Assembly (NCBI GenBank): GCA_963794755.1
Contig: CAWCEX010000010.1
Location: 617,621-681,620 of the forward strand
Direction: 5' to 3'
Origin: an uncultured Actinomycetota bacterium
Lineage (GTDB): Bacteria; Actinomycetota; Acidimicrobiia; Acidimicrobiales; RAAP-2
DNA length: 64,000 bases
Shown: piece after piece, positions 39,777 to 63,774 of the stretch
Layout of the letters: every line of letters begins with the position of its first letter
Position numbering within the stretch: position 1 is the stretch's first letter
Position numbers and translations under genes: made by a program
Notes under the pieces: model-generated
Database searches by the model: none
What the model was told of the DNA's origin: nothing
The model's input: only the letters and a program-made list of their open reading frames with translations

Positions 39777-39815
39777 GGCTAGTAATAATACAGCGGTTTG
39801 CAAATAGTTTGTAGC

Positions 39816-40466
39816 TCATCGACTGTCGTTTTGGTGGTAACTCCCAAGCTCTAGTTCAGCCTGTGTTGAGCCAACCGTCTGACCATCCTTCAGCCCAACA
39901 AAATCAAAGTCGTTTGTGAAGCCCGGACGAAGCAAAGCCGATCGAATCAACATCCGTGTTTGCCGCCGGCGCAGTTGCCGTGTATTGTCCGATAGCAGCG
40001 CCCGGTACATGATAGAAAACCATCGTGCCTCCCGCACTCGCCACGCCCGCAAAATGAGTGTTCGGCGGAATCATGTCCACGGTGTAAATGGATGCTTGTG
40101 TTACCCCATCGACCGTGAGCGCACTCATGCTGGCGGCGCCAGTTCCGGAGTTGGAGAGACCCAGGGTAGAGCTGACGTTCTGCCCCCGCGCAGCTGATGT
40201 GGTGCTCGCGGACTTCAGCAGAACGACATTACTTTTAATAACGAAGGCGAGGGAGAGGCAGTGATTTGAACAGTGTTTGAGGGCTGGCTGCTAACCGTCT
40301 TGCCGGCCCCATCCGAAGAGTGGGGATTCGAGGTTGAGTCCTCGCTGTAGAGGAACTCGCCGCCGAGAACTCTACCCAAGGATGCCAGGATTTCACCCCT
40401 AATCCAACCCGAGAACACGAAACCGGGCGCAGTTGATAACCGCGCCCGGTCGAAATAAGGAAGCAC
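39816..40466 (-). pseudogene. Frameshifted remnant of a Thr/Ser-rich surface-protein domain (DUF11-like)
   Basis: Joined frames read PSNTVQIT..LLKSAS..GQNVSSTLGLSNSGTGAA..VDMIPPNTHF, resembling conserved-repeat domains; no intact ORF. Confidence 0.35.
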
Positions 40467-40899
40467 TCAAGCGCCGTTTGAGGGTACGGCAGCTAGGCTG
40501 AATGATGATGGAATGTCAGAGATTGTCGTTGCGTCGATAGATACCCTCCTTCACCCGCTTGTGGGTTTATGAAAAGTCCTCGCGCCTCGACAGTGTCCTC
40601 AGTGTAAGGTCTGGCGCAAGAGCATGCTGTAGGCATTAAACGCCGTTTGGAAATTGTTGCAAGCGGAAAATCACCTGAGATGTGACCTGCAGTAATCGGT
40701 ACTCTCCCATCAGTTCTAAGGGGCCGCTCTCAAGTTCGCACCAGCTCAGCGTGCCAGCACCTCGGAGAACCCAAACGCTTCGATTCCCAGAGATGGTGGG
40801 TTCAGGTGCTCACCGACCCAACCTCGGGCAACCCTGAGTTGCTGATCTGCTTCCGAGTAAATATCCGCTATTGCGCGAGCCAACCTGAGGAGTTCCTCG

Positions 40900-41247
40900 A
40901 TGTTTACAAGAGCGGTCGAATTGAGAGCCAAACCGGGAAAGACAAACAGGTTGTTCAGCGTCACAAGCGAAAGGGTGCTGCCTATTCTAAAAAAGCAGCA
41001 AGGGTTTCAGGGCGAGATCGTACTTCTCTCGAACACTGAACCCGACCGTATGCTGGTGCTAAGTTTCTGGAATAAGCGCGAGGACGCCGAGCGCCACCAC
41101 CGCGAGCAGTTCCCTCGGTTATTAGAGATGCTGCGCTCCTTGTACGAAGGTGAACCTTTGTTTGGTTCAGACTGCTCAATCCTACGTCTCGGCACATCCC
41201 TTCTGCCCCGCCCTGACCACAAAGCTCTCGGGAATACAGCAGAGTGA
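40900..41247 (+). CDS. ABM-like (dimeric alpha-beta barrel) protein; C-terminus possibly corrupted
   Basis: PILKKQQGFQGE..LVLSFW..REDAE pattern; sequence after ~41155 looks non-homologous. Confidence 0.65.
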   Translation: MFTRAVELRAKPGKTNRLFSVTSERVLPILKKQQGFQGEIVLLSNTEPDRMLVLSFWNKREDAERHHREQFPRLLEMLRSLYEGEPLFGSDCSILRLGTSLLPRPDHKALGNTAE

Positions 41248-41663
41248 AATTACTCCCGCATGAGCTTCTGTCCAAAGCCGAGGGGGCGTTGGCATTCGAT
41301 GGGAGGAAAACACTCCACCCCTTTCACGACCTGTGCCCATCTCCGGTTTCCACGAGACAAGACGGACGATCTGCCGTACCGAACGATTCGACCTTGCGCG
41401 GAGTGCCATGACCTAAGTCAGCCATTACCTACCAATAGAGGAACGAGGGCTGTCCGTAAGTGATGATGCTGGCAGGTCGGCTAAACACCGACTAATACCG
41501 TAGGTGTCACCTCACCCAGTCCGTGATCTTCCACTAACGGCTCCATCGTCCGGCATGCCGCAGTGAACTCATTCATCAAATGCGGCACTTATCGCCACCC
41601 CTCCCCCTCTCCGCTCCCCCACATCACCCCATCGCAACCGTGGCGTCTCGCCAGTGCGCTGGG

Positions 41664-42656
41664 GTGGCGACGACGAACTACGCAGGGTTAAGTCGAGGAC
41701 GGAAGGTGTATCCACAGGTAAGCTGTCACGTATCAAGCGCTGGTTCAGATTCGTAGTGAAGGTTACGATTAACGGAAAATCCACTTCGGCCTTCTTGATG
41801 TGAACTCAGCTGATGTACCAGCTGCGTTCGCGCGTAGTATGCAGTGCTATTCCCGCAAGGCCCTGCATCGTTGACTACAGCGGGGTGGCTACTAACGAGT
41901 CTTGTACCCCCGTCATGAGAGAGCTCAGACAGCGCTGACGTACTGAACCATTAGCTTACCCCAAAGTGACAGATGGTTCCGGTGCATGTAGATCCTTGTG
42001 GTTGGCAGGAGAATATTACTCGAACACGGCGGCGGGTTGCAGAGATAACAGTTAATGGCTGATTTACGTTCAAGAACTACACATTGATCCGCATCTTCTC
42101 AGTGCCTACGTTAATTTGACAAACACGGCGATAGAGCGGATTCAGCTGACATCTTTGAGTCACCGACTCCGACGGAGCTAGCCACATAAAGATGCGCTGA
42201 ATACGCTGCTATCGCCGTAGTTTGTCAAATTAAGTAGGCACTGAGAAGATGGGGATCAGATGTGTAGTTGTTGGACTAATCCGCCCGGAGCTGTTATCTC
42301 TGCAACCCGCCGCCGAGTTCGAGTAATATTCTCCGGCACCACAAGAAAACACATGCCCCGCAACCATTGTCATATGGGTTAATGGTCAGCGTAGTTCTAC
42401 TGAGCGCTCCGGCGGGGGTACAAGACTGGTATCTGTAGCCACCCCAGTGTAGTCAACGATCAGAGTGCCTTGCGGAGCCTGCACATTACGGAGAACGCGG
42501 CTGGTACATTCAGCTGAGATCAGTCAAGATAGGCCGATATGGATTTTCCATTAATCTAGTAACCTATCGCAGCGAATCTGAACCAGTGACGACTGAGTAC
42601 CTGTGGAAACATTCGGCGTGACTATAGACTCAACTGTAGTATTGAGTCGTCGCCAC
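41664..42656. repeat. Long imperfect inverted repeat (~490-bp arms, 31-nt loop, centre ~42171)
   Basis: Exact complementary blocks: 42027-42051/42291-42315 (25 bp), 42008-42025/42317-42334, 42092-42109/42234-42251, 41740-41753/42573-42586, 41664-41674/42646-42656. Confidence 0.92.
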
Positions 42657-45062
42657 CGCGACAGGCGTAGGACGAACCCACGCCGCTGTGCTCGTCAGAT
42701 TCTGAGTGCTGCCGTCACTGTAAGTACCGGTAGCCGTGAATTGTTGGTTATTGCCAAGCACGATTGAGGGTTTGCTGGGTGTGGCGGAAATGGACACTAA
42801 CACTGGTGAAGGTTTGTTTATCACTGCCGTCGTCGACCCGCTTATTGCCCCTAGCCCACCGGTTATCGTTGCCGAGCCTTGCCCGGAACCGGTGGCATAA
42901 CCGGAACCATTAATATTGACAATCGCCGTGTTGGATGACGACCACATGACAGAGCTTGTCAAGTTCGCCGTGCAGCCTCCAGTGTAGGTGCCAGTTGCGG
43001 TGAATTGCAGATTGCCGCCGATTGTAATCGCAGGACCGGACGGCGTAACCGCTATGGACAACAGTTGGGTAATGCACCCAACGATCAGAGTGGTGTTTGC
43101 AGAAACCGAACCCTTTGCCGCTGTGATCGTCGTTAAACCCATGCCGGAGCTGGTAGCGAGACCCTGCGAGCCCGTGCTGTTGCTGATAACGGCTACAGTC
43201 GCGGACGAACTGGTCCAGGTAACATTCGTGGTGATGCGTTGCGTGCTCTGGTCGGAGTAGGTGCCCGTCGCGGTGAATTGCTGTGAGGTCCCCAGTGCGA
43301 TCGCCGGATTTTGCGGAGTGATGCTGATAGTGACCAACGCCGGTGGGGTGATCGTCAGAGAAGCCGTGCCCGACACGCTGCCGGAGGTCGCGCTAATAGT
43401 TGTCGAGCCTACTGCAACGCTGGTGGAAAGGCCCACGGTCCCAGTGGCATTGCTTATGGTGGACACGGTACCGGCCGAAGAACCCCAGTAGACTGAGGAC
43501 GTCAGGTCGTGCGTGGTGCCGTCGGCGTAATTACCTGTCGACGTAAACGCTTGCGTTGTTCCCAACGGAATGAGAGCAGTTGCAGGCTTGATCTTGATCG
43601 AAACCAATGCCGCCGCTGTGACCGTCAGTGTCGTCGTCCCACTGATATTCCCGACCTTAGCGATAATGGTCGTACTGCCGGTCGCGGCGCTGTGCGCCAA
43701 GCCTGTGGAATCCACGGTTGCAACTGTCGATACGCTTGAACTCCAACTTGCAGTACTCGTCAGATTCCGGGTAGTCGAGTCCGTGTACATTCCTGTTGCC
43801 GTGAACTGCTGGCTCGTCCCGACAGATGCTATGGATGGATTAGCTGGAGTAATGGCGATCGAGTCCAACACTGCTGTTGTGATGGTCAAGATGGTCGAGC
43901 CGGAGACTGATCCTGAAGTCGCGGTGATGTTCGTCGTTCCCGTGGCAAGACTGCTTGCGAGCCCACTCGTTCCGGTGCTGTTGCTTATTGTGGCGACCAT
44001 CGCGGCCGATGAACTCCATTGCACCGTGGTAGTGAGATTTTGCGTGGTGTGATCGGTGAACGTACCCGTGGCTGCAAACTGCTGATCTGTACCGAGCGGA
44101 GTGGATGGGATGGCTGGCGTGATCGCAATGGACACTAGCTGCGCCGGTGAGACGGTGAGGGTTGTCGATTCCGTAACTGTGCCGGACATTGCAGATATCG
44201 TTGTGACGCCGACAGTGGCACTAGTTACGACCCCCGCCGCGGAAATCAAAGCGACCGCGCCAGCGGACGAACCCCAAGTAACAGCAGAGGTTAGGTTTTG
44301 AGTGCTGCCGTCGCTGAATGTCCCCGTCGCCATGAGCTTCTGGGTCGTACCGAGGGCAATCAGGCTATTCGCCGGAGTAATCGCAATCGACTGGAGCACA
44401 GCAGGCAGTACTGTTAACGACACAGAGTTCGCGGTGATCGAACCTGTCGAAGCAGTGATGCTTGTCCTTCCGTCTCCCCCGCTTTGGGCCAGGCCCACAG
44501 CATTGATTGTGGCTACGGACGGAGCGGAGGAAGTCCAGGTTACAAGGCTAGTAACGTTCTGGGCGGAACCGCCGGTAAAGGTACCGGTTGCCTCAAACTG
44601 TTGTGTTGTTCCGAGCTGGATTGATGCGCTCGCCGGTGTAACCGACAGGCCCTCCAGCGCCGCGGGCGTGACCGTCAGCGTCGTTTGTCCCGATACTCCC
44701 CCTGCCGAAGCGGTGATCGTCGTGATGCCAACCTCACTCGCAGTGCCCATACTCATACCTGATGGGTCACTCGTTACTATGCCGGGAGTCGACGAGGTCC
44801 AAATTGCAGTTGTGGTTAGGTTCCGTGTGCTGCCATCAGAGTATGTTCCGGTTGCCGCAAACTGCCGCGTCGTATGCAATGGCATCACGGCATTGGACGG
44901 GGTGATAGCAATTGAAACCAAAGTAGGTGCAGGCCTGTGACGCATAGCGAAGTCGAGACTGGCCGGAGCTGCGGAGACCTGCGCTGTGGAAACTTGCGCT
45001 GTGGCGCAAATCAAAAACAGAGCCGAGGCAAATAGCGACAACGTGATCCGATAGCGAAACAT
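42630..45062 (-). CDS. Secreted bacterial Ig-like (Big_2) repeat protein, 3' end truncated
   Basis: Signal peptide, then 8 complete ~90-aa repeats (L.SIAITP..QQF.ATGT..DG...W.SS..VATI..GL..T.I.A..G..T.LTVT) and a ninth broken at the inverted repeat. Confidence 0.88.
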   Translation of the reverse strand: MFRYRITLSLFASALFLICATAQVSTAQVSAAPASLDFAMRHRPAPTLVSIAITPSNAVMPLHTTRQFAATGTYSDGSTRNLTTTAIWTSSTPGIVTSDPSGMSMGTASEVGITTITASAGGVSGQTTLTVTPAALEGLSVTPASASIQLGTTQQFEATGTFTGGSAQNVTSLVTWTSSAPSVATINAVGLAQSGGDGRTSITASTGSITANSVSLTVLPAVLQSIAITPANSLIALGTTQKLMATGTFSDGSTQNLTSAVTWGSSAGAVALISAAGVVTSATVGVTTISAMSGTVTESTTLTVSPAQLVSIAITPAIPSTPLGTDQQFAATGTFTDHTTQNLTTTVQWSSSAAMVATISNSTGTSGLASSLATGTTNITATSGSVSGSTILTITTAVLDSIAITPANPSIASVGTSQQFTATGMYTDSTTRNLTSTASWSSSVSTVATVDSTGLAHSAATGSTTIIAKVGNISGTTTLTVTAAALVSIKIKPATALIPLGTTQAFTSTGNYADGTTHDLTSSVYWGSSAGTVSTISNATGTVGLSTSVAVGSTTISATSGSVSGTASLTITPPALVTISITPQNPAIALGTSQQFTATGTYSDQSTQRITTNVTWTSSSATVAVISNSTGSQGLATSSGMGLTTITAAKGSVSANTTLIVGCITQLLSIAVTPSGPAITIGGNLQFTATGTYTGGCTANLTSSVMWSSSNTAIVNINGSGYATGSGQGSATITGGLGAISGSTTAVINKPSPVLVSISATPSKPSIVLGNNQQFTATGTYSDGSTQNLTSTAAWVRPTPVAVATTQYYS

Positions 45063-45828
45063 AACTGCACCTCTTCTAACAGGAATAATTCTCCAACCTA
45101 CATATGGCAGCGTACTGAGCTATATTGCACGGTGCCGACAGATATGTTCGCCGTGCCTGGCAATTGCGACCAAAGTAGGACAGATTGCGACGGCCACTAG
45201 CCAGTTTGGTGTCTGGTGTTCCAGATGGGGCCCTTGGGGATGAGATAACAGAGGCAGCAGAGGTAGTTCGTAGTTGCGCTTAACCGGGAGACAGCCCGTT
45301 GAATATTTTGTACTAAACTAAGAAACACTGCAGTTCGGGTTTAAGGGTTATTACATTTGTAACTCCGTGGCTTGCCGAGGTCTGAGCTGCGCTGACCATT
45401 CGTTGAAACTTCTCGGACACACCTCGGGCGGGGGAGTTTAGGTGGGAATCAGATGGGGATACTTCAGTATGGAAAGTTCAACTACCTTGAGGAGCAGCCC
45501 TTTGAAACGGCTGCCGAGTGTGCGGAAAAGCGCCCGGTGTTTCTGCTGTTGTTTCAGTAGATGCTGTCTTGCCCGCAGAATGTGAGCAACCTTGACCATT
45601 TGTAACATTTTTCTGGCTTATTCGCTCAGCCCCATCCTCGCTGACCATTACGGACACCCAGTTGAATACTGGACTGGGTGTTGCTCTTCGCCGCGATCAT
45701 TGCGGGTGAAGTTGCAATTGGGTTCGTAATAAATACTCGGCTAGAGACCATTTCACCGCCGATTGAAAAGAAAGTCCGCCATGCCGGCTGTCTTTTCGGC
45801 AAACTCGACGAAACCGAGGATACCATGC

Positions 45829-46086
45829 TCATACATCGTCTGGCCTCCACAGCCTGAAACGCGGGTCATCGGTATACCTCTCGTCATACTTCTGGTTTGC
45901 TGTCTTCCAATCTGCCATCTGCATTGGCCTTTCGTCTTGCAGTCTGAACAGCTTTTCCAATTTCTTTATCGCAGCGATCTTCCGCTTTCCGGCTCTGCAA
46001 TCTAAAACCAGCAGCGATCTTTTATCAGGCAGTCTAAAGAGCTTTTCCAACCACTTTATTTCGGCAATGATCCTTTCGGCGTTCAT
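45829..46086 (-). CDS. Small hypothetical protein with internal duplication
   Basis: IAEIKWLEKLFRLPDKR / IAAIKKLEKLFRLQDER. Confidence 0.55.
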   Translation of the reverse strand: MNAERIIAEIKWLEKLFRLPDKRSLLVLDCRAGKRKIAAIKKLEKLFRLQDERPMQMADWKTANQKYDERYTDDPRFRLWRPDDV

Positions 46087-46277
46087 ATTGTTGCCTCACT
46101 TCGTTACCGCGCTCCGTGATAGAACCTGCGAAGACGGAAGTCTGAGCACACTAGACAGCTTCGGCCTTTTAGGATGCTGCCTTGTACTCTCTTCTGATAC
46201 AAACCTTTCTGGGCGGAAAAGTTGCAGGTTTCATTGGCACAGCTCTTGCTGGTAGGCCATCCAACCAAACAAAGCAA

Positions 46278-46305
46278 AGCCCCCCAGCCCGTCCGGCTGA
46301 GGGGC
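46278..46305 (-). terminator. Terminator-like hairpin
   Basis: AGCCCCCAGCC-CGTCC-GGCTGAGGGGCT with a T-rich tail on the minus strand. Confidence 0.45.
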
Positions 46306-46675
46306 TAAACACTTCTACCGGCGACTATTTAACGCGGCCGTATTCACGCCCCGCCTTACGCCAAATCTGTAGCTATACGATTTTGCATACCCCACGCCAA
46401 CGCGCCCCGAAATACACCGCGGGCGGATAAACATAGCCGGGACCGCGAGGTGAGTTACTTGGAGTACGATGGGTTTTTGAGAGAAGTGGGGCGGCCCTCC
46501 GCGTCCTTGTCCTGCATCTTTGGCCATGGCTTTGAGCAACCTTGACCATTCCAGCACTTGCTTCCTGCTACGCCCTTTTCCTTTGAGATACCATTGCAAC
46601 GCTACAGTGCGAAGCGGCAGAGCTGTTATGCTCCGCCGCTTCAGATTCGCGCTTCGCCAAATTCAGCAGCAAGGG

Positions 46676-47239
46676 TTAGTGGCGTCCACCACCACCATGT
46701 GAGCCACCACCGCCACTATGACCGCCACTGGCATGCCCCCCACCATGAGAGCCACCACCAGCGTGCGAACCGCCACCGCCACCGCGAGAACCGCCACCGC
46801 TACGCGCAGCTACGGTGTGGGTGCCGCCACCGTGATACCCACCGCCACGACTAGAGCGTAGTCCCGATGAGCCTCGTCCACCGCCGTATCCTCGGCCGCC
46901 GCCGTATCCGCCTCTGGCGACATACCTTCCTCCACCACCACCGCCGAAGCGATGACCACCCCAGCCGTGGCTATATCCCCAATTCCCCCACGGGCCCACG
47001 CCTAGGAAGATGCCGTTATAGAAATAGCCCGGCCCATAGAAACCCATGGGTGCGCAGCCATACGGTGAGTAGTCATAGTAGCCATAGGTACATACTGGCG
47101 GATTTACGCTGATAATAACTTGCGCGTTGGCCTTTGGCACTACGACCAGGGATGCGAATAAAGCTGTTGTACCGATCAGAAGCAGACTGTTCATTGCAAA
47201 CTTGTGAGCCCAAAAAGCTGCACGCTTGACTTGCCACAT
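46676..47239 (-). CDS. Secreted Tyr/Gly-rich protein with a Gly/His/Arg low-complexity tail
   Basis: GAGG RBS, signal peptide ending ANA-Q, PPVCTYGYYDYSPYGCAP, GG-rich tail. Confidence 0.75.
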   Translation of the reverse strand: MWQVKRAAFWAHKFAMNSLLLIGTTALFASLVVVPKANAQVIISVNPPVCTYGYYDYSPYGCAPMGFYGPGYFYNGIFLGVGPWGNWGYSHGWGGHRFGGGGGGRYVARGGYGGGRGYGGGRGSSGLRSSRGGGYHGGGTHTVAARSGGGSRGGGGGSHAGGGSHGGGHASGGHSGGGGSHGGGGRH

Positions 47240-47340
47240 TTTGTTTCCTCTTTATTGTCCGAAGGGCTTTTGATGTAGCGTTCCAGAATCACACGCTCGA
47301 TAACAGCCACCAATCTTCGGAACCGACTTTCTTCTTTAGG

Positions 47341-47466
47341 CTACGGCCTGATGACGACGGTAGTGTGATGGTGATGATGATGGCGATGGTGTCTTGCGGC
47401 GAATGCTGGCATTGCCGCGCTCAGCAGCAGAACACAACTCAGTAAAGCGATCATTGACTTTTTCAA
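47341..47466 (-). CDS. Secreted His-rich micropeptide (41 aa; below the ORF-track cutoff)
   Basis: GGAGA RBS, TTG start, MKKSMIALLSCVLLLSAAMPAFA-ARHHRHHHHHTTVVIRP*. Confidence 0.7.
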   Translation of the reverse strand: MKKSMIALLSCVLLLSAAMPAFAARHHRHHHHHHTTVVIRP

Positions 47467-47734
47467 TGTATTTCTCCGGCGAACGTCCTTAGGAGCATTC
47501 AGCCTCTAGCAGCTTCAGTATTCCAACACTCAACGTACTACGCTGAGCAATCCGATACAGTCGCGGCAAGTTATCGAAATAAATGTTCACAGGCAGGAGA
47601 ATTCCGCAGCGGCGCCTGATTAACATTTAGTCTGAGAGCAGAACAATTCAAGACATCCAAGATCGCGGATCGACGGGGCGAGTATTCGCATGCTGCCATG
47701 CGGAGCACTTAAATTGGTGATAGGCTCCCCTGTC

Positions 47735-47998
47735 ATGAAGCCCGTGGAGCGGGAATTCGTTACTCTGCCGGAACTGCGTCGGGGCGACGCTTGCGTTATG
47801 ACTGTGGAGCGAGGTGCCTATTTGCGCGTGAAGGTCGTGGGCGTCAAGCCAATCAAAAACATCCTGCTCTACACCCCCACGATTCTCAGGACAGTATCGA
47901 CAACTGAATTCGTTGCCGCGGGCGAGGATGTGTACGCATGCGCTTTCCCGCCTAGCAAACTATTCGAACGGGTCTTTCTTGAGGGCGAAGATAATTAG
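47735..47998 (+). CDS. Small hypothetical protein
   Basis: Beta-rich 87-aa ORF; no family recognised. Confidence 0.4.
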   Translation: MKPVEREFVTLPELRRGDACVMTVERGAYLRVKVVGVKPIKNILLYTPTILRTVSTTEFVAAGEDVYACAFPPSKLFERVFLEGEDN

Positions 47999-48099
47999 CT
48001 CCGTAGGCAGCAGGATTACCAGTGCTCCGTGTACAACGGGCTCACAGCAGAAGGCGATCATACCCCTCACGTTGGAACTCACCCGCAATCAGTCAGGCT

Positions 48100-48297
48100 T
48101 CACGCTGCACTCTGTTTGTGACCCTTGCTTCTGACTAGTTCCTTCAGGCGGGAGAACTTATCAGGAGGTAGGGTAGCATGATCGTCGAATCCCAGTTCCG
48201 CGACGAACCTTTGCTCCTCCTCCGTCATTTCGTGCATAAGAATATTCCGCGCTTGCTTGTAGAGGTCATCTACTTCGCTCTGTCGGTCAGATGCCAT
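48100..48297 (-). CDS. Small hypothetical protein
   Basis: GGGAGG RBS; 65 aa, charged and helical. Confidence 0.55.
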   Translation of the reverse strand: MASDRQSEVDDLYKQARNILMHEMTEEEQRFVAELGFDDHATLPPDKFSRLKELVRSKGHKQSAA

Positions 48298-48417
48298 TTG
48301 ACCCTCCCCACTCCCACATTGTTACCATCGTAGTCTTTTGCGGAATACATCGGGCGTTTATTCGCAGGAGAGTTCGCTACAGCTCTCCACGCTTCCACGG
48401 CGTACGGCGGTTTCCAG

Positions 48418-49308
48418 CTAGCAAGATAGGAGATGCTCAAGGTCTGTCAAAAAGGAAGTCGGCGACAAACCCTTCACAGATTGCTTGTCCACACGTTGCA
48501 GGGCCTCTTGGGGAATATCAACATAGGAGGACAACAATAGAATCTTTATGTCGGGGTTGAGGCGTTTCAATTCCGCAGCTACCTGCCCCCCATCCATGCC
48601 CGGCATCGCATAGTCAAGCACAACTGCATCAATCGGATTGGCTTTGAATAATTTAAGGCCTTCGGGGCCGCTCAACGCAGTGAGCACCTCGTAGCCCTTA
48701 TTCCGCAGAATTGCTTTGCGAACCACTAGACCGTTTGGTTCGTCATCAATGCACAAGACCGTGTTATCTCCACTCACCAGAACATTCACCCAGTCGGCTT
48801 CGATGCGGATGTTCCGGTAAAGAAGGTAGGCGAGGAAGCGTTCAGCAAACTTCGGTTTCTGCTGGAGGAGTGTTGCCATTGCTTGTTTGGTCACCCGAAT
48901 GACCATGCTCTGCTGAACCGCGCTGGCGGAGGACAAGCGAAGCGGTTGCCCAGCCAAGCAGCCCTCGCCGAAGAAGCTGGCGTCCGGCATGGTGGCCACT
49001 ACAACTTCTTTGCCACTTTCGGAGACGACCGTGAGCTTCACCTTGCCACTCTGAACATAGAACACCGCGTCTGCCGTGTCTCCCTGTAGGAAAATGAATT
49101 CATCGGTTTGGTATTCCCTGCGAGTGGTTCCGCTCGAAGGATCGGCCAGTATCACGCTCGGATCAAATGTGTCATTGGATTCATCAAGCTCAAGGTTCGC
49201 TGAGCCAGGCACGGCTTCATGAGTCGCGGACAGTTGCAAATCGGCGCTCTTCCTAGTGGCAGTCTCGCGCTGCTTCTTTTGGGCGATGACACTGCGTTTA
49301 CTCTTCAT
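48418..49308 (-). CDS. cNMP-binding (Crp N-terminal) domain fused to a C-terminal receiver domain
   Basis: IFLQGDTADAVFYVQSGKVKL..FFGEGCLAGQPLR, then VLCIDDE..VVLDYAMP..LLLSS; no HTH. Confidence 0.8.
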   Translation of the reverse strand: MKSKRSVIAQKKQRETATRKSADLQLSATHEAVPGSANLELDESNDTFDPSVILADPSSGTTRREYQTDEFIFLQGDTADAVFYVQSGKVKLTVVSESGKEVVVATMPDASFFGEGCLAGQPLRLSSASAVQQSMVIRVTKQAMATLLQQKPKFAERFLAYLLYRNIRIEADWVNVLVSGDNTVLCIDDEPNGLVVRKAILRNKGYEVLTALSGPEGLKLFKANPIDAVVLDYAMPGMDGGQVAAELKRLNPDIKILLLSSYVDIPQEALQRVDKQSVKGLSPTSFLTDLEHLLSC

Positions 49309-49455
49309 GCGGCCTCCGGACTCGTTAGAGCCTATGCGCTGACCTCACACGAAAGATGGTCAATTTTGCTCAGATCTCAGAGGCGTTGTTGCTTGCGAAT
49401 TCCTGTCACCCGGCACTTGTCCAACACAGCCGCCCCTACAGCGCAACCGCAGCGG

Positions 49456-50228
49456 CTAATCGTGGAGCACAACGCTAACCAGTGAGCTGTGGACGTTCAC
49501 CCGCCGCCGTTGTACTCGATGAAGCCCATCTCCCGGAAACGATTCATAAAGAAGCTGACTCGCGAACGGGTCGTGCCGATCATTTCGGCAAGGGTCTCCT
49601 GACTCACTCTCGCGATGAGCGGTATCGGTTTGGACTCCTGCCCGAAGTTGGCCATCAGCAGTAGGAGCCGGGCCAGACGTTTCTCGCTGGAATTGAACAG
49701 GTGATCTACAAGGTCGGCTTCCATGCGGATGTTGATGTTTCGCGAAAGAAGATAGGCTAGAAATTGTTCGGCAAACACCGGCTCCCGATGGAGCAATTCG
49801 ACCATCGCACGCTTTTCGACGCGAACAATCGTGCTCTTCTGGTCGGCGCTAGCCGTGGCCATACGGATCGGTTGTCCCGCCAGGCAGCCCTCGCCGAAGA
49901 AACTGGCTTGCGACAAAATGGCAATCACTGCTTCTTTGCCGCTCTTCGACACCACTGTAAGCTTCACATTGCCGCTCTCGACGTAGAAGACCGCATCCGC
50001 AGCATCCCCTTGATTAAAGACACACTCCTCGGCCAGGTAAACCCGAGCAGTCTTTCCAACGGAGAGTTTCGTTAGCAGAACGTGGGGGTCGAATAAACCA
50101 TCCCTCTCCGGCAGTACCTCTACGGGGCTCAGCCTCTCTTCGGTAGTGGATGCTGGGGGCAAAGACGCGCTCAGCCCGCAGTGAGCCTTGATCTTTTTTA
50201 TCGGGGCAGCGGTGCTCTTGGAGGCCAT
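49456..50228 (-). CDS. Crp/Fnr-family regulator (frameshift near 49497)
   Basis: FFGEGCLAGQP, LFNSSEKRLARLLL, SQETLAEMIGTTRSRVS; tail NVHSSLVSVVLHD* in the shifted frame. Confidence 0.88.
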
Positions 50229-50503
50229 CGGAATATCCCACTCGGACAGTGTATCTAGGGGCTTTTACCGAGCGGACATAGTATAGCCCAACAGCAACTT
50301 GGAACCATGAATGTTCACTTTGGCGCTCCCGAAGTGAAACGGCGGTATATATGGGCCACAGGGATGCATATTCATTTTCCCTGCTCGGGGGAACAGACAG
50401 TGCAGCGATGATCAATTTTGCTCAGATTTAGGGAAAATCATGAGAGTACAAGGGGTGTAGCCTCTAAGCCGCATTGCAAGGCTTACGAGCACGAGGAAAG
50501 ATC

Positions 50504-50719
50504 ATGAAGACGAGCACGGAAGACAAGATGAAGGGTAGCTTCCACGAACTCAAGGGAACAATCAAGGAGCAAGTCGGGAAGGCTACCAACGACCGCAAGT
50601 TGAGAGTCGAAGGGAAAGTTGAAAAGAAGGCCGGAAAGGTTCAGCAGCAGATCGGCCACGCCAAAGATGCTGTGGCAAAGCTAAAAGGCAAGCTTGCGGA
50701 GATCAAGAAAGCTGGATAG
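50504..50719 (+). CDS. CsbD-family general stress protein
   Basis: EDKMKGSFHELKGTIKEQVGKATND..EGKVEKKAGKVQ. Confidence 0.85.
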   Translation: MKTSTEDKMKGSFHELKGTIKEQVGKATNDRKLRVEGKVEKKAGKVQQQIGHAKDAVAKLKGKLAEIKKAG

Positions 50720-50814
50720 GTATTCTTAACGGCTATGGACAAAACGACAACGGGCGGATTTCTTATGGCGGCTCCATTTTTTCGAAGCTACCCGCGTTTT
50801 GAGGAGAGACTCTA

Positions 50815-51486
50815 TTGACCACGGCAAGAGGGGGGCTGGCATACGGGACAGAAGCCGAAGCCATCGAAGGTGCCAAGCAAGGCGATGGCGAGTGCTTGGA
50901 GTTTCTTTATAGCCGCCACAAAAGGCGCGTTTACTCGCTGTGTCTGCGGATGGTTGGCAATATCGATGAAGCGGAGGATGTTACGCAGGAAGTCTTTCTC
51001 CAGCTCTATCGCAAGATTGTAAGCTTTCGTGGCGATTCTTCGTTCGCGACTTGGCTGCATCGCGTTACCGTCAACATCATCCTCATGCGGTTTCGCAAGA
51101 AGGGTCTCATTGAGGTATCCCTTGAAGAGACTCTGGGCTCCACAGAAGATGGTGATCAGAAGAGGGAATTTGGTTCTGAGGATAGGCATCTTGCTGGCTC
51201 CATTGACCGTGTAATTCTGGAGCGTGTCATTGAACGCCTTCCGCCCGGCTATCGCATTACTTTTATTCTGCAGACTCGAGGATGGCAGGCGAGATGCCAA
51301 TTGCTGGGATGCTCCATTAATACCAGTAGATCGCAACTTCACAAGGCGCGGTTGAAATTGCGTGAAGTGCTAGACGTCGCTCGCGCCGAATATAACCGGC
51401 GCAAGTCAACACGTAAAATGAAGACTCAGGACCGGTTGACTATGGCAAGGGAACGTGGCGCAAGAGCTGCGGCCACCGCCGCCTGA
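50815..51486 (+). CDS. ECF sigma-70 factor (RpoE-like)
   Basis: EAEDVTQEVF, FRGDSSFATWLHRVTVN, LPPGYR, SQLHKAR; region 4 locally scrambled. Confidence 0.85.
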   Translation: MTTARGGLAYGTEAEAIEGAKQGDGECLEFLYSRHKRRVYSLCLRMVGNIDEAEDVTQEVFLQLYRKIVSFRGDSSFATWLHRVTVNIILMRFRKKGLIEVSLEETLGSTEDGDQKREFGSEDRHLAGSIDRVILERVIERLPPGYRITFILQTRGWQARCQLLGCSINTSRSQLHKARLKLREVLDVARAEYNRRKSTRKMKTQDRLTMARERGARAAATAA

Positions 51487-51705
51487 TTAATTATCCTCTT
51501 TTTCAAGGTAGGCAACACGTCGTCCCGTTGCTGATCATCCTTCACCTGCGCCAAGGCATAAATCGTTTCTTTTGGCCCGACATTCGCATTGTTCCGCTGG
51601 TGTCGAGACATCCTTGCTTTGTTCCTGCTGCAATGCCACAATCCTGCTGAGCGTTCGGAACAAGTCGAACTCTTCCAAGCGTTGTGGAAAGAGCGCATCA
51701 CATCA

Positions 51706-52092
51706 ATGAAACTCGCTCTCGCTCTGTGTGCCGGATTATTAACGATTGCATCCGCTTCAGCACAGGATTCTGGTTTCCGATTCATCACCGCTGGCGTAGC
51801 GCATAGCTGTGTCCTCAATGCCGAGGGTAAAGCATATTGCTGGGGCCGTAACGAGCACGGACAACTTGGAAACCACACAACCGTAGACTCAACGAAGCCT
51901 GTCCCTGTCGATACCACGCTGAAATTCTCGTTTATTACGGCAGGCTATCGGACTACCTGTGGAATTACGAAGGACAACGGCACGGCCTATTGCTGGGGGG
52001 ATAATACGCTGGGTCAGCTTGGAACTTCTGAGCCAACGGAAACTTGCGGGAGCGTATCCTGCCTGACTATTAGTGCCTTTAATAAAATTTGA
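51706..52092 (+). pseudogene. Truncated secreted RCC1-repeat protein
   Basis: Signal peptide plus two repeats (AGVAHSC..AYCWGRNEHGQLG; AYCWGDNTLGQLG), then a premature end. Confidence 0.7.
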
Positions 52093-52338
52093 TGAATTTA
52101 CTATCCGCTAAGGGTAGGCGTGCGTCAGCGCATGGGAATCCGTCTCCACCCATATTGGGCTGTTGATGCCGGAATACCAAGCCACAGCGTGACGGGATTC
52201 GGTGGTACCACCCCCAAGCCTTGCCCTCTACGGATTCAGTTCTACACAGATCAATCTATCTGTCCGCTAGCAGGATGTGTCTCACGTCCCTGGTCGTGCA
52301 GAATCGGTCTTTTCTTGTGTGCCGGAAAGTGAGTGGTT

Positions 52339-52773
52339 ATGTCGTGGATGTGGTTGTATCTGGCAATCGTGCTGGAGGTCGCCGCAACCGTTTGCATGAA
52401 GCTCTCCGATGGATGCTCGCGGGCCATCCCTTCGGTGTTTATGGTGTTGTTTTACGGCGTTAGCTTCTTTCCCACTGCAATAGCGCTGCGCCGATTGGAT
52501 GTTGGCATGGCTTACGCGGTGTGGTCAGCGGTGGGCACGTCACTTATCACCCTGGTTGGTATGGTGCTATTCAAAGAGCAGATGTCGCTTACCAAGATGG
52601 CTGCGCTCGGAATCATTATCTTCGGTGTCGTCGTGCTGAGTTTGAGTGGCAAAGCTGAGAGCCAGCCCGCTCGGTCTACGGCAGACATAGAACGAGCCGT
52701 GAAATTGCACCTGCCCACCCGCGTGCTGCTAACCAGCGAGGAGTCGAGTTCTACCCGTTTGCCTTTGCGTTGA
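52339..52773 (+). CDS. SMR/DMT small multidrug efflux protein (EmrE/QacE-like)
   Basis: WLYLAIVLEV (conserved E), AYAVWSAVG, GVVVL. Confidence 0.88.
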   Translation: MSWMWLYLAIVLEVAATVCMKLSDGCSRAIPSVFMVLFYGVSFFPTAIALRRLDVGMAYAVWSAVGTSLITLVGMVLFKEQMSLTKMAALGIIIFGVVVLSLSGKAESQPARSTADIERAVKLHLPTRVLLTSEESSSTRLPLR

Positions 52774-52809
52774 CGTTGAAGCAATGGATGTCGCGCTATT
52801 CCAACTCGC

Positions 52810-53610
52810 CTAGTTGTTGCGGCTGCGAAGCTTGGAGAGCAAGCGGATGATTTCCAGGTAGAGCCAGACGAGCGTAACCATGATGCCGAAGGCACCGTAC
52901 CACTCCATAAATTTGGGCGCGCCCTGATTGACGCCCTGCTCGATGAAGTCGAAATCGAGGACAAGGTTAAGGGCGGCGATGGCGACTACGAAGAGGCTGA
53001 CGGCGATGCCGATCGGGCCAGAGCCGTTGATGGCGACAAAATGGATGCCGAATAGGCCGAGAATCATCTCAGCAAAATAGAAGAGGCAGATGCCTCCGGT
53101 GGCGGCGACGATTCCGAGGCGAAGCTTTTGGGTGACCTTGATGACGCCAGTGGAGTAGGCCGCGAGCAGCACGAAGAGGGTGGCGAACGTGAGTCCGACG
53201 GCCTGAATGGCGATACCGGGGTAGCGAAGGTCCAGCATGGCGGAGAAGGCACCGAGGAAGAGCCCTTCAAGTAGGGCATAGATGGGCGCGGTGATGGGAG
53301 ACCATTCGCGCTTGAAGCTGGTGATAAGGGCGAAGATGAGTCCGCCGAAGATACCGACCAGCATTTCGAGCGACACGGAGGCAGGGTCGTGGGTCGCCGC
53401 GAACTGTGTCCATGTGAAGAAGGCGGAGGCGACAGCGAGGACGAGCAGGATTCCGGTTTTGTTGACGGTGCCGCTGAGGGTCATGCTGCTGCTGGTGCTG
53501 ATGGCTCCGCCATACTGGGCGCCGGAAACGCCGCCGCCGTAAGAGCTGTCGGACAAGCCGCTGAAAGTGTTGCTGCCGAGGGCGGGATTGGATGTCTTGA
53601 ACAAGGCCAT
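52810..53610 (-). CDS. Bax inhibitor-1/YccA family membrane protein
   Basis: KTSNP, YALLEGLFLG, LVLDFDFIEQG..APK.MEWY.AFG..VTLVWLY.E. Confidence 0.9.
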   Translation of the reverse strand: MALFKTSNPALGSNTFSGLSDSSYGGGVSGAQYGGAISTSSSMTLSGTVNKTGILLVLAVASAFFTWTQFAATHDPASVSLEMLVGIFGGLIFALITSFKREWSPITAPIYALLEGLFLGAFSAMLDLRYPGIAIQAVGLTFATLFVLLAAYSTGVIKVTQKLRLGIVAATGGICLFYFAEMILGLFGIHFVAINGSGPIGIAVSLFVVAIAALNLVLDFDFIEQGVNQGAPKFMEWYGAFGIMVTLVWLYLEIIRLLSKLRSRNN

Positions 53611-53816
53611 GGAGTGCCTCCTGAATCAAATGTAACGCAAAAGATGGAGGCTTGGAGCGAGAGAGATGCCTTGGTATTGAACTTGCCCCACGTCAAAGGC
53701 AAATGGATTGAAACTCTGAAATTGATTGCCATTGTGGCGGAGAAGGTTTAGACGTGAGCACGGTCTGCGGCACCAGGGCGACAGGTGCACATGGCTCCGG
53801 CTGGCACCGGGCTCTT

Positions 53817-53930
53817 CTATTGGTTCCGTGAACGTCCAGCCGCAATTACGAGAATGATACCTATAATCACTGAACTGATTACGAGTCCAGCGGCAATCGC
53901 GTTGGGTGATAAATCTATATTTCCATTCAT
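53817..53930 (-). CDS. Possible single-TM micropeptide
   Basis: MNGNIDLSPNAIAAGLVISSVIIGIILVIAAGRSRNQ. Confidence 0.35.
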   Translation of the reverse strand: MNGNIDLSPNAIAAGLVISSVIIGIILVIAAGRSRNQ

Positions 53931-54428
53931 GGCAATGCGAACTCTACACTTTCGGCAACCCTGCTGCAAGCAAAGACGGCCGCCCACTACCCGGCAAGGG
54001 TAACTCTGGACAACTCTGCCTCCCGAAGCGATAATCGTGGGTTTCCCGGACTCCTTCCATGTGCGCCCGAGCATGAAACATGGGGCGAAGTCATATGCGG
54101 TCAGTGTGGTGAGGTTTTTCGTGTCGGGCCTAATCGGGACTATTCAGACCCCGCACAGAAGATGAGGTACATGAAGAAGTTCTTGCGGACGAGCACAGGC
54201 AGGGTGATAGGCATCAGAACCGCTACGACTTGGGCTGATAGACCGCTCGCTTCAGCCGTGTGCACCTTGTGCCACTCAGATAGCCTTCGCTCACCGTGAT
54301 CAATCTCGCCTCGTTTTTTGTCCAGTGGGCCTATCCCACATCGACCCTCGAGCGCCAGAACTGGTTACCGAAGTACTCTGGCCGTTCGATTCGACTGAAG
54401 CTAAAGTAAACCGCTCAAGAGGGTGCCC

Positions 54429-54695
54429 ATGGACGCCACTGAAAAACCCGATATCAACGCTATCTGCTTGCAAAATGCCGTACTCTGCGCCGATTGCGAG
54501 GTAATCAGCGACAGCCCGCATGACACCTGCTGCGTCTGCGGAAGCCGCTCGTTGTTGAGTTTGTCCCGTGTTCTCGGCACACTCCCGGTACAGAGGGCGC
54601 AGCTAATAAATACTTGGGTGTCCAAGTCTGAAAGGCCAAATTTCTCACTGGAAGTTCGAATTCACCCTATGCGGATTCGGCGACCTGTGGCGTAG
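54429..54695 (+). CDS. Cys-rich microprotein, family B (AVLCxxCE...CxVCGSRSL)
   Basis: AVLCADCEVIS..TCCVCGSRSLLSLSRVLG; paralogue at 58899-59276. Confidence 0.7.
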   Translation: MDATEKPDINAICLQNAVLCADCEVISDSPHDTCCVCGSRSLLSLSRVLGTLPVQRAQLINTWVSKSERPNFSLEVRIHPMRIRRPVA

Positions 54696-54855
54696 AGCGT
54701 CGTAATGCAGCAGCACCACCACCTCCACGCCAGCCTCGCATGCCTTCACAAAGATCGTCTTGGTCGCGCTCCACTTTTGCCACAGCCTCGCAGCTGGAAG
54801 AAATGGGAAAAACCGAAGCACGCCGTTGCGACCCAATCCAACTCAGCACGTTACG

Positions 54856-55689
54856 CTACGCAGCCACCGCGACCGAAGAGGCGGGGGCCACGGTTGAGCG
54901 AAGAGTGAGGCAATCGGTGCGCATGCGTGCCCACTCCTGCACTAGAAAACCATGGGACTCAAAGAAGCTGCGAATCTGCGGTTGCACCCGATGTGCCACC
55001 TCTTCGAGGATGGGCACCAGAACACTGAGTGCGTTATCGCTGAGCACGGTACGCTTGGCAATCTGCGTCACGCAGCGCGACTCGGAGACCGCGATGGTGA
55101 GTCCATCACCCTCGTTGACGTGTAGCATGGCGTTCATATCAGAGCAGCCATCTCCCGCATAGACAACGTGATCGAGTCCGATAGAGCGCTCGGCCTGGAG
55201 CTGCATGACGCGCGTCACCTTGCCGTATCCGGCAGTGCACCGAATAAGGCGCTCAATTGCACCGTTAGGTCCCCACTGGAATTCGGTGCCGTAGATGTGA
55301 TCGGCGGGCACAATCCCTTCGAGCGCCGACTGCACGATCTCCACTGGCGCGGCGGAGAGAACGCAAAAGTCGAACTCGTAGCCGGGGATGCCTTCGCGCA
55401 AGGTGTGGTAGAGAAGCTGGATGTTTTCCTTGAGCGGGATGCGCTTTCCGGTTTCAATCAAATGCTCACGGCGAACCCGTGAGCTGAATGTCGGATCGTG
55501 CAGGAGCAGGTATGCGAGTTCCGCGCCCTGCTGCACGAGATTCAACTCCGCCATACCTGCCGCTTTTTCCTTGAACTCCTCAATCGGAATGCCGAGTAGT
55601 TCGGTGAGAACAAGGCCAGAGTCGTTGAAGCTCAAGGTCTGGTCGAAGTCGCTGGCGAACAGATACTGCTTAATCATAATTTCGCTCAT
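54856..55689 (-). CDS. HAD-superfamily hydrolase (phosphoserine phosphatase-like)
   Basis: Motif I DFDQT, LSAAP, GYGK, motif IV GDGCSD. Confidence 0.8.
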   Translation of the reverse strand: MSEIMIKQYLFASDFDQTLSFNDSGLVLTELLGIPIEEFKEKAAGMAELNLVQQGAELAYLLLHDPTFSSRVRREHLIETGKRIPLKENIQLLYHTLREGIPGYEFDFCVLSAAPVEIVQSALEGIVPADHIYGTEFQWGPNGAIERLIRCTAGYGKVTRVMQLQAERSIGLDHVVYAGDGCSDMNAMLHVNEGDGLTIAVSESRCVTQIAKRTVLSDNALSVLVPILEEVAHRVQPQIRSFFESHGFLVQEWARMRTDCLTLRSTVAPASSVAVAA

Positions 55690-56058
55690 ATCAATTCCTA
55701 TGATGCCCGAAGGCTGTTTAGGCGCTGAAGGTGAATTAGAGGTTTATCGGCTATTTGGGTGGTTGATTGGTTAGATGTCTGGCAGCGTGTGGTGGTTGTG
55801 CAGTTTTCATTCAAGGGGGCAGTTCGAAGGCAAGGAGGTCACGGTGGTGCTGGCCGTCCACTTGAAAGAGCAGAGATACATCAATCAATTAACATGGCTG
55901 CGATTTTTGCGCCCACGAAGCAAACTCTCCAACGCATCGAATAGCCCACGTCTGCTGGCCCTCATAGACCGCAAGTAATATCGCACCACATCTGGAGTGC
56001 GTGTTCTTCCAAAACTGACAATGTGGGCACGTCAGCACAGATTCGAGAATCACATCCG

Positions 56059-56880
56059 TCATTTGCTAGCTGCCTTCGAGCGGTCAACCAACTCAGCAAA
56101 CTTCCGCAGTTCCTCGAAGTAATCGTTTCCAGCAACCGGCGTAAGGTTATTGTGACCAGCTTTGTCCGCCCAATAGGAAACCTTCGGTTCATTAGCGGCG
56201 GCGAAGAGCGTCTGGCCGTGATAGAAGCTGATGATGCGATCTCTCTTACCGTGGATGACGAGCACCGGACAATGAACATTACGGATTTTCGCAAGATTAG
56301 GAAATTTATCGAAAGGCAGCAAAGCAAACCGAGTCAGAACTCGGAATGCGCTGGTGAACGTGCTCTCCATAATCAATCCCGCAACTGGACGTCTTGCGGC
56401 AAGGTCAACGGCCGCGGCTCCTCCCAACGAGCGGCCCCACGCAATGATTTGGTCGGGAGGAACGTGCAGGTCGTTGGTGAGGTAATGATAGGCAGCTTCG
56501 CTGTCTTCGTAGAGATGCTCCTCGGACGGTTTACCTTTGCTGGTGCCATAGCCTTGATAATCGTAGGCGAAGACCGAGAATCCTGCATCGCGGATATCTT
56601 CGAGGAACCCAGCGTCGTAGCCCATGTCCTCAGCATTTCCATGGCTAAAGAGGAGAGTGAATTTCGCGTTCGCGTTGGGGAAGTATTTGGCCGAGATTCT
56701 CGCGCCGTCAGCACTGGTTAGCTTCAAGACGGATGCATCGTCCCGATATCCCGGCGAAGGAGGCTGGAAGATGATGCTGTCGGTAAAGACCCCGCCAATT
56801 ATCGTTAGCATCAGGTACGCTCCCGCTATCGCCAGTACCACTCCCCGAACGATTCGCGACGCCCGGCCAGCAACGTGCAT
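56059..56880 (-). CDS. Alpha/beta hydrolase (ABHD17/Bem46-like)
   Basis: HGNAED, YDYQGYG, nucleophile GRSLG, HGKRD, AGHN. Confidence 0.88.
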   Translation of the reverse strand: MHVAGRASRIVRGVVLAIAGAYLMLTIIGGVFTDSIIFQPPSPGYRDDASVLKLTSADGARISAKYFPNANAKFTLLFSHGNAEDMGYDAGFLEDIRDAGFSVFAYDYQGYGTSKGKPSEEHLYEDSEAAYHYLTNDLHVPPDQIIAWGRSLGGAAAVDLAARRPVAGLIMESTFTSAFRVLTRFALLPFDKFPNLAKIRNVHCPVLVIHGKRDRIISFYHGQTLFAAANEPKVSYWADKAGHNNLTPVAGNDYFEELRKFAELVDRSKAASK

Positions 56881-56999
56881 AGCATATTGTACGAAGGGGC
56901 GGGGCAGGAAGTTCAAGCCGCCTTCACTCAATATTGCGTGGTATACGCTCGTGGGCGTGTTCTCCTACAAATTGTTAACAATGCTGGCCGGACTTCGAT

Positions 57000-57191
57000 T
57001 CAGGCGACCGCACGCTGTTTAGCTTTCGCCGACGCAACCAACCTCATCTCCTGTCAGTCATACGGCAACGCCTTGCCGCAGTCCAAGCAGACAATGTACG
57101 TGGTTGAAATCGCCCCCGGCTTTTTGGAGGTTCTCGGAAACGTACAGTGGCGGTGAGTACAACCAAACAGAGCATCGACCAACCTGAACAT
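57000..57191 (-). pseudogene. Family A Cys/His microprotein paralogue with an in-frame TGA
   Basis: MFRLVDALFGCTHRHCTFP..YIVCLDCGKALPYD*QEMRLVAS..; TGA at 57056-57054 where the paralogue has Trp; CAGGAG RBS. Confidence 0.75.
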
Positions 57192-57346: not shown

Positions 57347-57384
57347 TGTTTGCTGTTTTGCAGGTGAAATTACTAATATGAGAC

Positions 57385-63769: not shown

Positions 63770-63774
63770 GGCGA

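Follow-up and report, generated by a model that had tools for sequence, protein, structure and literature searches.

An apparent 1-kb hairpin in the window (the whole 64,000-nt stretch of DNA analyzed here) is most likely no physical DNA structure. Base by base, it is a mosaic of a native coding segment of ~975 nt, which we denote S, and the reverse complement of that segment, rc(S). We think it reasonably probable, judging from how the two sequences are interleaved, that the pseudo-hairpin is the garbled consensus of a recent, non-programmed inversion of S, with both orientations mixed in the sample.

A pseudo-hairpin with sharp edges

A sequence-only reading of this DNA had reported an imperfect inverted repeat, and we recovered it at the same place. 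The best gapped alignment pairs 41639-42156 with 42188-42682 across a 31-nt spacer and comprises 421 matches, 51 mismatches, and 46 gap openings (69 gap bases), corresponding to 78% identity. The arm-versus-arm local score was 413 (21.3 ± 2.4 in shuffled sequences), and a local fold-back of this type is unique within the 2.85-Mb genome. Between 40001 and 42000, no ORF of at least 150 aa was found. The features of the locus are as follows.

40900..41247, plus strand: intact ABM-domain gene, 115 aa (Pfam ABM, E = 1.8e-8)
41248..41638, no strand: clean intergenic spacer, C-rich stretch included (one indel and one mismatch against assembly L004; ~98% identity to assembly L007)
41639..42682, no strand: blended segment (the "hairpin" in full), a position-wise mosaic of native S and rc(S)
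41754..42629, minus strand: native remainder of the Big_2 gene, that is, the end of the last Big_2 domain and a conserved C-terminal domain of ~235 aa
42157..42187, no strand: the "loop," within the native reading frame; no structural loop
42630..45062, minus strand: Big_2 (bacterial Ig-like) surface-protein ORF, 810 aa (Pfam Big_2, seven repeats, E = 1.6e-64)

Similarity between the arms had been described as fading outward, with traces to ~41520. We found the edges of the anomaly to be sharp, at 41638/41639 and about 42682/42683. Outside these edges the window is 100% identical to L004, an independent assembly, whereas within them identity to L004 is 66%–89% per 100 columns and the alignment is indel-rich. 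What had been taken for C-rich noise at 41595-41630 proved to be real sequence, with one mismatch in L004. The neighboring ABM gene, thought to become unrecognizable after ~41155, is an intact ORF: The exact protein is also encoded in L004, four 115-aa variants from other assemblies share an invariant tail, and this tail falls beyond the Pfam ABM model.

Clean versions of the locus in other assemblies

The locus was compared with its counterpart in three further nanopore assemblies, each made from a single sample: L004 (ERZ25039484), L007, and L009. All three carry a clean S (L004:10738-11712 and L007:7294-8268, as well as L009), and the native order is the ABM gene, a 390-nt spacer, and a non-palindromic S of ~975 nt. 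L004 is colinear with window positions 30938-51283, and the order of left flank, segment, and right flank is the same in L004, L007, and L009. Up to both edges, the flanks of the window match all three assemblies closely or exactly (100% identity for L004 and L009). No inverted repeat was found at the locus in any of the three; their arm-versus-arm scores were 18–20 (21 for shuffled sequences, 413 for the window), and 10-mer self-cover of the clean haplotype was 1.2%.

L004 and L009 are identical across the whole segment, even though they are separate assemblies that differ elsewhere (98.2%), and the version of the segment that they share is therefore reproducible, accurate sequence. Unpolished raw-read noise and a nanopore basecalling effect at inverted repeats were both rejected as causes, since this shared version is free of a palindrome. 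L007 differs from L004 within the segment by 50 substitutions, in three gap-free blocks. The metagenome from which the genome was recovered shows evident strain mixture, with blocks of 100% and 93%–96% identity in mosaic.

The locus is rearrangement-prone, with a hot spot of rearrangement at the left edge of S in L007. No assembly was found to contain a clean inverted S, and repeated look-ups gave the same contigs only. Among 30 related genomes none had a match to the Big_2 gene, and in five genomes of the same genus the DNA flanks were too diverged for synteny. Two short-read Logan contigs carrying the neighboring deaminase (L002 and L003) stop ~1.3–1.5 kb short of the segment.

The hidden end of the Ig-like gene

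The inverted repeat swallows the end of the Ig-like gene, as the sequence-only reading had noticed: The Big_2 ORF is truncated at 42630 because the blended sequence interrupts it. Membership in the Big_2 family follows from tandem domains above the Pfam cut-off (seven to eight repeats, E = 1.6e-64 to 7.2e-80), and a Pfam search of the protein returned nothing besides Big_2. No record of the exact 810-aa product was found. The same gene encodes 929 aa in L004 and is a 974-aa open frame in L007, where the uninterrupted Big_2 frame ends in "...NLVSFR*". The window and L004 have a 1-nt frameshift in common in this gene. The native stop (L004:10855-10857) corresponds to about position 41754 of the window, just past an exact block at 41738-41753.

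The minus strand of S comprises the final ~330 codons of the Big_2 gene and ~118 nt past its stop. Going by sequence comparison, S is genuine coding sequence, because it is open in L007 and because homologs of the C-terminal domain, 72%–80% identical, follow Big_2 genes in relatives, downstream and in the same direction. An AlphaFold2 model of this domain was poor (mean pLDDT 45). The Big_2 gene is misrepresented in the record, its true 3' end with the conserved domain being hidden in the blend. The "loop" also belongs to the gene: Forward-type exact blocks at 42155-42233 dominate the region, which is coding in L007. The two mini-hairpins that had been picked out in it lie inside the native reading frame and are not conserved in L007.

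A mosaic of the segment and its reverse complement

S or rc(S) accounts for every base of the window segment, with none left unexplained. Exact 10-mers of S or rc(S) cover 58.5% of it, compared with 1.6% in shuffled sequences, the forward orientation contributing 35% and the reverse 25%. These matches are colinear on both diagonals, forming two series that are interleaved in both halves of the segment. A jumping alignment to S and rc(S) scored 1635 versus 1441–1451 for decoys, a gain of ~190 points, and window-specific singleton columns numbered only 10 + 10. Reverse-type blocks begin and finish exactly at the edges of S. L004-type alleles were present at six out of six positions in forward-type blocks and at six out of six in reverse-type blocks.

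It had been suggested that the arms are two broken copies of one coding sequence. Instead, each arm is a mosaic of two non-homologous native stretches read on opposite strands, and the arm differences that had looked synonymous are meaningless, since neither arm is a homologous copy of the other. Any blend of S and rc(S) resembles its own reverse complement, which gives it the look of a 1-kb hairpin rich in indels. We also considered a real duplication that had diverged, with its arms undergoing gene conversion, and rejected it, the two source sequences being non-homologous.

A probable collapsed inversion

The mosaic suggests that some of the sampled population probably has S in the flipped orientation. 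The haplotype markers are the same in both orientations, which would make the inversion recent or ongoing. The source study assembled each sample separately with metaFlye 2.9.2, followed by one round of Medaka (PMC12313526). Under the explanation we favor, the sample would have contained molecules with native S and molecules with inverted S, at roughly equal frequency and with identical flanks, and metaFlye and then the single Medaka round would have failed to split the two orientations. Reads of the minority or other orientation would have been force-aligned over the segment; Flye runs minimap2 with a relaxed Z-drop. The consensus would then have taken bases block by block from either orientation, producing a pseudo-palindrome centered near the midpoint of S. 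The center of the "loop" (42172) lies ~11 nt from that midpoint (42160.5).

In a naive simulation of forced alignment followed by a plurality consensus, a pseudo-palindromic blend appeared only near a 45:55 mixture, and the window is mixed more thoroughly than the output of this simulation. We infer that the reads really contained both orientations and that the blend of the two arose at the polishing step. In the flipped state, the protein would end just past its last complete Ig-like domain.

The inversion is most likely recent and non-programmed, with edges that appear to share 5 nt of inverted microhomology (GGCGT/ACGCC) alone. No significant inverted repeat was found at the edges of S; the best candidate, a gapped 11-nt repeat, is set ~25 nt inward of the breakpoints and scores no better than chance. 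Nor was a recombinase gene found near the locus (C10:659 kb). Hits to PF00589 lie at C10:111 kb, C10:299 kb, C6:107 kb, and C5:121 kb, and the PF00239 hit is at C6:469 kb; the tyrosine recombinase gene closest to the locus is ~360 kb off, and the sole serine recombinase is on a different contig. An unlinked recombinase might still act on S. The lack of a significant edge repeat and of a nearby recombinase speaks against the favored explanation, as does the lack of a clean inverted S in any assembly. S holds no alternative C-terminal cassette, all three of its plus-strand frames being filled with stops in L004 and L007.

Alternative explanations

The sequence-only reading had leaned toward an artifact over a physical hairpin, and this leaning holds. 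The mechanism it proposed, a nanopore fold-back, and its suggestion that the two flanks may not be neighbors both fail on the order seen in L004, L007, and L009. A fold-back (template–complement) chimeric read, used as the assembly backbone and joining unrelated loci, would suit a long-read assembly with indel-rich arms and an ORF-free span, but we find it barely credible. Because the flanks are true neighbors, with the flank–segment–flank order repeated in assemblies from other samples, there was no fold-back joining two loci; moreover, the left arm ends at 41639 and does not run on into the right flank's reverse complement, and blocks of both templates occur in each arm, which a fold-back cannot yield. 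We regard as very improbable a real palindrome in the DNA of the strain, that is, an inverted duplication of the 3' end of the gene that later diverged. The proneness of the locus to rearrangement speaks for it, as do arm-specific differences that are partly common to L004 (65 columns), but these columns are the spots where both halves retained native sequence. Furthermore, downstream coding sequence that is native and non-homologous also occurs in the left half, and its reverse complement in the right half; template switches every 10–30 nt, with indels where they occur, are impossible via recombination of non-homologous sequences; and a haplotype without a palindrome matches the flanks at 100% identity. 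Three options raised earlier fail as well: An inverted duplication by template switching, a hairpin at a replicon end, and a long dsRNA hairpin would all need a palindrome, and clean versions of the locus exist without one. The 1-kb hairpin should not be annotated as a palindrome, a replicon end, or a source of dsRNA, and the contig should not be split at it, because the halves of the window are true neighbors.

Two further explanations accept the blend of S and rc(S). According to one, all molecules were in the native orientation and the assembly graph or the polisher mixed the strands of S internally. A pure software artifact of this kind would agree with the lack of a clean inverted allele in any assembly, the lack of boundary inverted repeats and of a local recombinase, and the alleles shared by both "orientations," as expected if they came from the same molecules. 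It is nonetheless unlikely: The effect is unique in 2.85 Mb, three other same-pipeline assemblies of the locus are without it, the reverse-type blocks are bounded exactly by the edges of S, and we know of no process that puts rc(S) between correct flanks without inverted reads. According to the other, S is a programmed intragenic inverton, flipped by a site-specific recombinase encoded elsewhere, and the surface protein alternates between a full-length form and one without the C-terminal domain. Orientations that appear to be near 1:1 on the same haplotype would be as in a switching population, and the left edge of S coincides with the L007 hot spot. There are known cases of intragenic invertons that introduce premature stops, their invertases are often unidentified, and in one validated inverton, thiC, the repeat spans 11 positions (Chanin et al., bioRxiv 10.1101/2023.03.11.532203). 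We still hold a programmed inverton to be distinctly unlikely. The 11-nt repeat at the edges of S is gapped, displaced ~25 nt inward, and at chance level; the nearest tyrosine recombinase is distant (~360 kb) and the contig carries no serine recombinase; the consensus of the three other samples is in the native orientation only; and every plus-strand frame of S contains stops, which leaves no alternative cassette. A programmed inverton is unsupported, because no flanking inverted repeat and no nearby recombinase were found. A version that dispenses with both, in which a programmed reversible inversion lacking recognizable repeats or a linked invertase would toggle the Ig-like surface protein between forms with and without its lipoprotein-derived C-terminal domain, is a long shot; on that view, a population switching at roughly 1:1 would have left the pseudo-hairpin as its footprint. 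If the inversion were programmed, the inverton would belong to a soil phylum that has received little study.

Comparison with known systems

A collapsed, non-programmed inversion has its closest parallels in other cases of collapsed structural heterogeneity in long-read consensus sequences. The window shares with them clean flanks around a sharply bounded garbled stretch, content fully explained by two alternative alleles, and a strain-mixed metagenome; it differs in that the alleles are two orientations of one segment and their blend mimics a hairpin. A literature search returned no description of this type of pseudo-palindrome artifact. Nanopore fold-back reads likewise place palindromic sequence in long-read data, but their arms come from one template and their flanks are unrelated, whereas each arm in the window is a mosaic of two templates, between flanks that are true neighbors.

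Intragenic invertons (Chanin et al., bioRxiv 10.1101/2023.03.11.532203) are similar in that a coding sequence would be inverted with a would-be premature stop, a surface protein would be the target, and only long reads can detect the event. Inverted repeats flank those invertons, and their flipping is ascribed to invertases; at the present locus neither a significant repeat nor a nearby recombinase was found, and one edge lies ~118 nt past the stop, making the segment partly intergenic. C-terminal cassette switching of the Gin, Cin, or shufflon type acts on surface- or adhesin-type genes whose 3' end lies in an invertible segment, as it would here, but the present locus has no opposite-strand coding cassette, crossover sites, or linked recombinase. 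A sharply bounded, indel-rich pseudo-palindrome that is fully explained by a non-palindromic segment and its reverse complement could serve as a marker of inversion polymorphisms that lie hidden in metagenome-assembled genomes built from long reads.

The inverted repeat and the same locus in other assemblies

The imperfect inverted repeat described in the sequence-only reading is indeed present in the window. The best gapped alignment of its reverse-complement arms pairs 41639–42156 with 42188–42682 across a 31-nt spacer (421 matches, 51 mismatches, 46 gap openings, 78% identity), with an arm-versus-arm score of 413 (shuffles, 21.3 ± 2.4). No second local fold-back like it occurs anywhere in the genome (2.85 Mb, 11 contigs). 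No ORF of at least 150 aa was found in 40001–42000, and the gene to the right, encoding a bacterial Ig-like (Big_2) surface protein, ends inside the repeat:

42630–45062, minus strand: Big_2 ORF as it stands in the window, 810 aa, terminating within the right arm

Using exact-protein look-ups, we reached contigs of this population in other per-sample metagenome assemblies: L004 (ERZ25039484, a 141-kb contig found through the protein of the ABM gene, left of the repeat), and L007 (ERZ25039590) and L009 (ERZ25039493), both found through cluster members. These assemblies are Microflora Danica nanopore metagenomes, in which each sample was assembled separately with metaFlye 2.9.2 and one Medaka polish (PMC12313526). 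The gene order of the window (ABM, spacer, segment, Big_2, further genes) recurs in all three contigs; the left and right halves of the window thus really are neighbors, which refutes the earlier suggestion that they may not be. The Big_2 gene was found in none of 30 sampled related genomes, and in five genomes of the same genus the flanks are too diverged in DNA for comparison.

The window and L004 are base-for-base identical over ∼40750–41637 and 42683–∼45000. Exactly between 41637 and 42683, identity is 66%–89% per 100 columns, with many indels, and the window replaces a native segment, denoted S:

L004:10738–11712 and L007:7294–8268: S, ∼975 nt, coding on the minus strand; replaced in the window by 41639–42682

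L004 and L009 are 98.2% identical elsewhere yet identical across the entire 1117-nt region, so their version, being a reproducible consensus, cannot be put down to read noise. L007 aligns to it in three gap-free blocks with 50 substitutions in all. The clean versions contain no inverted repeat; a repeat search returned only two chance 14–15-mers, and their arm-versus-arm score (18–20) is at shuffle level.

A mosaic of S and its reverse complement

In a four-way arm comparison, the window arms had private states at only 10 + 10 columns, and at each column they agreed with one or other of the two non-homologous halves of L004. A permissive global alignment explained every window base by S or by its reverse complement, rc(S), two sequences that resemble each other only at shuffle level (0.635 vs. 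0.60 for shuffles). Exact 10-mers of S covered 35% of the span, those of rc(S) 25%, and both jointly 58.5%, compared to 1.6% in shuffled sequences. Blocks of exact match reach 46 nt in length and fall into two colinear series, which interleave in the left half as well as the right. A two-template jumping alignment scored 1635 with S and rc(S), 1441–1451 with S and decoys, and 1406 with S alone.

Any sequence assembled block by block from S and rc(S) must resemble its own reverse complement, with the S midpoint as its center; the center of the "loop" (42172) lies 11 nt off the midpoint of 41639–42682. Recombination cannot produce template switches at intervals of 10–30 nt, accompanied by indels, between sequences that are not homologous. 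The pattern is that of a consensus caller's output from two incompatible aligned read sets, and the inverted repeat, though present in the record, very probably exists in no DNA molecule. We thus rejected a real palindrome, given these switches and the clean versions that lack the repeat. The fold-back read joining two loci, favored in the sequence-only reading, was likewise rejected: The flanks adjoin in all three contigs, and the segment is an S/rc(S) blend.

Most likely, the blend was caused by a collapse of both orientations of S: The sample would have held molecules with S in either orientation between the same flanks, which the assembly pipeline would have merged into one consensus. Judging from the assembled sequences, the blend probably conceals a ∼1-kb inversion polymorphism at the 3′ end of the Big_2 surface-protein gene. 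We ran a naive simulation in which noisy reads of the S and rc(S) types were forced into global alignment and a plurality consensus was taken, over two rounds. It returned clean sequence unless both read types were nearly balanced; at 45:55 it produced a pseudo-palindromic blend in which k-mers of S and rc(S) both occurred, qualitatively like the window, which is more thoroughly mixed. The minimap2 step of the Flye polisher has a relaxed Z-drop setting, under which alignments would be able to pass through a 1-kb inversion. At sites variable between L004 and L007, the window carried the L004 allele in forward-type blocks (six out of six) and reverse-type blocks (six out of six) alike; the flipped copy is therefore of the same haplotype, and the inversion recent or ongoing.

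The native segment and its probable inversion

In L007, a single open frame crosses the right arm and the loop, continues through the greater part of the left arm, and ends in "...NLVSFR*" at about window position 41754. The product of S comprises the final part of the last Big_2 domain followed by a ∼235-aa C-terminal domain, which has homologs at 72%–80% identity, no Pfam family match, and an all-beta AF2 model of low confidence. Relatives carry this domain as a separate, co-directional gene directly downstream from a Big_2 gene, and the orientation of S in L004, L007, and L009 is therefore native. Together with the single coding frame across the arms, this means that the left arm did not arise by decay of a copy; both arms had been read as broken copies of one coding sequence, but each is a mosaic of S and rc(S). 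In related Acidobacteriota MAGs (contigs L010, L011, and L012), the separate gene encodes 277–333 aa. The N terminus of the separate protein reads as a putative lipoprotein signal peptide, and the in-frame joining of the domain to Big_2 at L007:7412–10336 is an apparent gene fusion.

Inside the C-terminal domain (window ∼42258; L004:∼11325), the window, L004, and L009 all differ from L007 in length by 1 nt; as a result, the Big_2 frame stops after 929 aa (at L004:11300) and the domain falls out of frame. The difference is either a real frameshift of the haplotype or a systematic basecalling error. The domain may thus already be out of frame in this haplotype, in which case inversion would be nearly neutral.

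A flipped state would cut the protein short after the last complete Ig-like domain, and we asked whether it could be a programmed switch. Flanking repeats are the defining feature of known intragenic invertons (Chanin et al., bioRxiv 10.1101/2023.03.11.532203), whereas no inverted repeat at the edges of S is significant: The strongest candidate spans 11 nt, contains a gap and lies ∼25 nt inward of the breakpoints, and the edges themselves share only 5 nt of inverted microhomology (GGCGT/ACGCC). The validated thiC inverton does have a repeat of just 11 positions, and the invertases of intragenic invertons are often unknown (Chanin et al., bioRxiv 10.1101/2023.03.11.532203). Against a programmed inverton, there is also no recombinase gene near the locus (the nearest tyrosine recombinase match is ∼360 kb off, and the only serine recombinase of the genome is on another contig), and the plus strand of S holds no alternative cassette, with stops in every frame. 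We consider a programmed inverton unlikely. The lack of a significant edge repeat, nearby recombinase, and alternative cassette, along with the possible prior frameshift, leads us to favor a one-off inversion, bounded by microhomology, that segregates in the population.

Neighborhood of the segment

The ABM gene (40900–41247, plus strand), thought to become unrecognizable after ∼41155, is intact (115 aa), with a tail invariant across four variants, and the supposed C-rich noise at 41595–41630 is part of a clean, real spacer (41248–41638). The locus is a rearrangement hot spot. In L009:10019–12837 (window equivalent ∼40980), the ABM gene is broken by a 113-aa ORF and an IS21-type element:

L009, within 10019–12837: IS21-type element proteins, IstA-like (509 aa) and IstB (256 aa)

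In L007:6727–7331, ∼545 additional nt lie at the left edge of S (within ∼10 nt), flanked by direct repeats of 60 nt, which are 85% identical and take in the first ∼36–45 nt of S. This insert contains two small ORFs (96 and 61 aa), neither of which matches Pfam, and nothing else in this genome matches it.

A single-copy piece of ∼945 nt (40315–41258; ABM plus ∼585 nt upstream) is 98% and 92% identical to pieces adjoining katG and fur on two further contigs (L008 and L005, respectively). The L008 katG is only 72% identical to that of this genome (C10:217817–219930, on the contig that holds the window), and the piece therefore looks recently transferred between different organisms. No convincing ORF lies in the ∼1.1 kb that separates the adenosine deaminase gene from ABM (39804–40900); in this interval, L004 carries an insertion of 19 nt relative to the window (bin 40500–40750). 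Long-ORF cover is low in 45000–64000 (0.11–0.78 per 2 kb) relative to the rest of the contig, with many small ORFs; small genes or errors in the sequence may account for this. Finally, across 30750–51250, blocks of 100% identity to L004 alternate with blocks of 89%–97% (mostly 93%–96%) that differ almost only by substitutions. This mosaic looks like a strain mixture; co-occurring strains may have recombined, or the consensus path may have switched from one strain to another.
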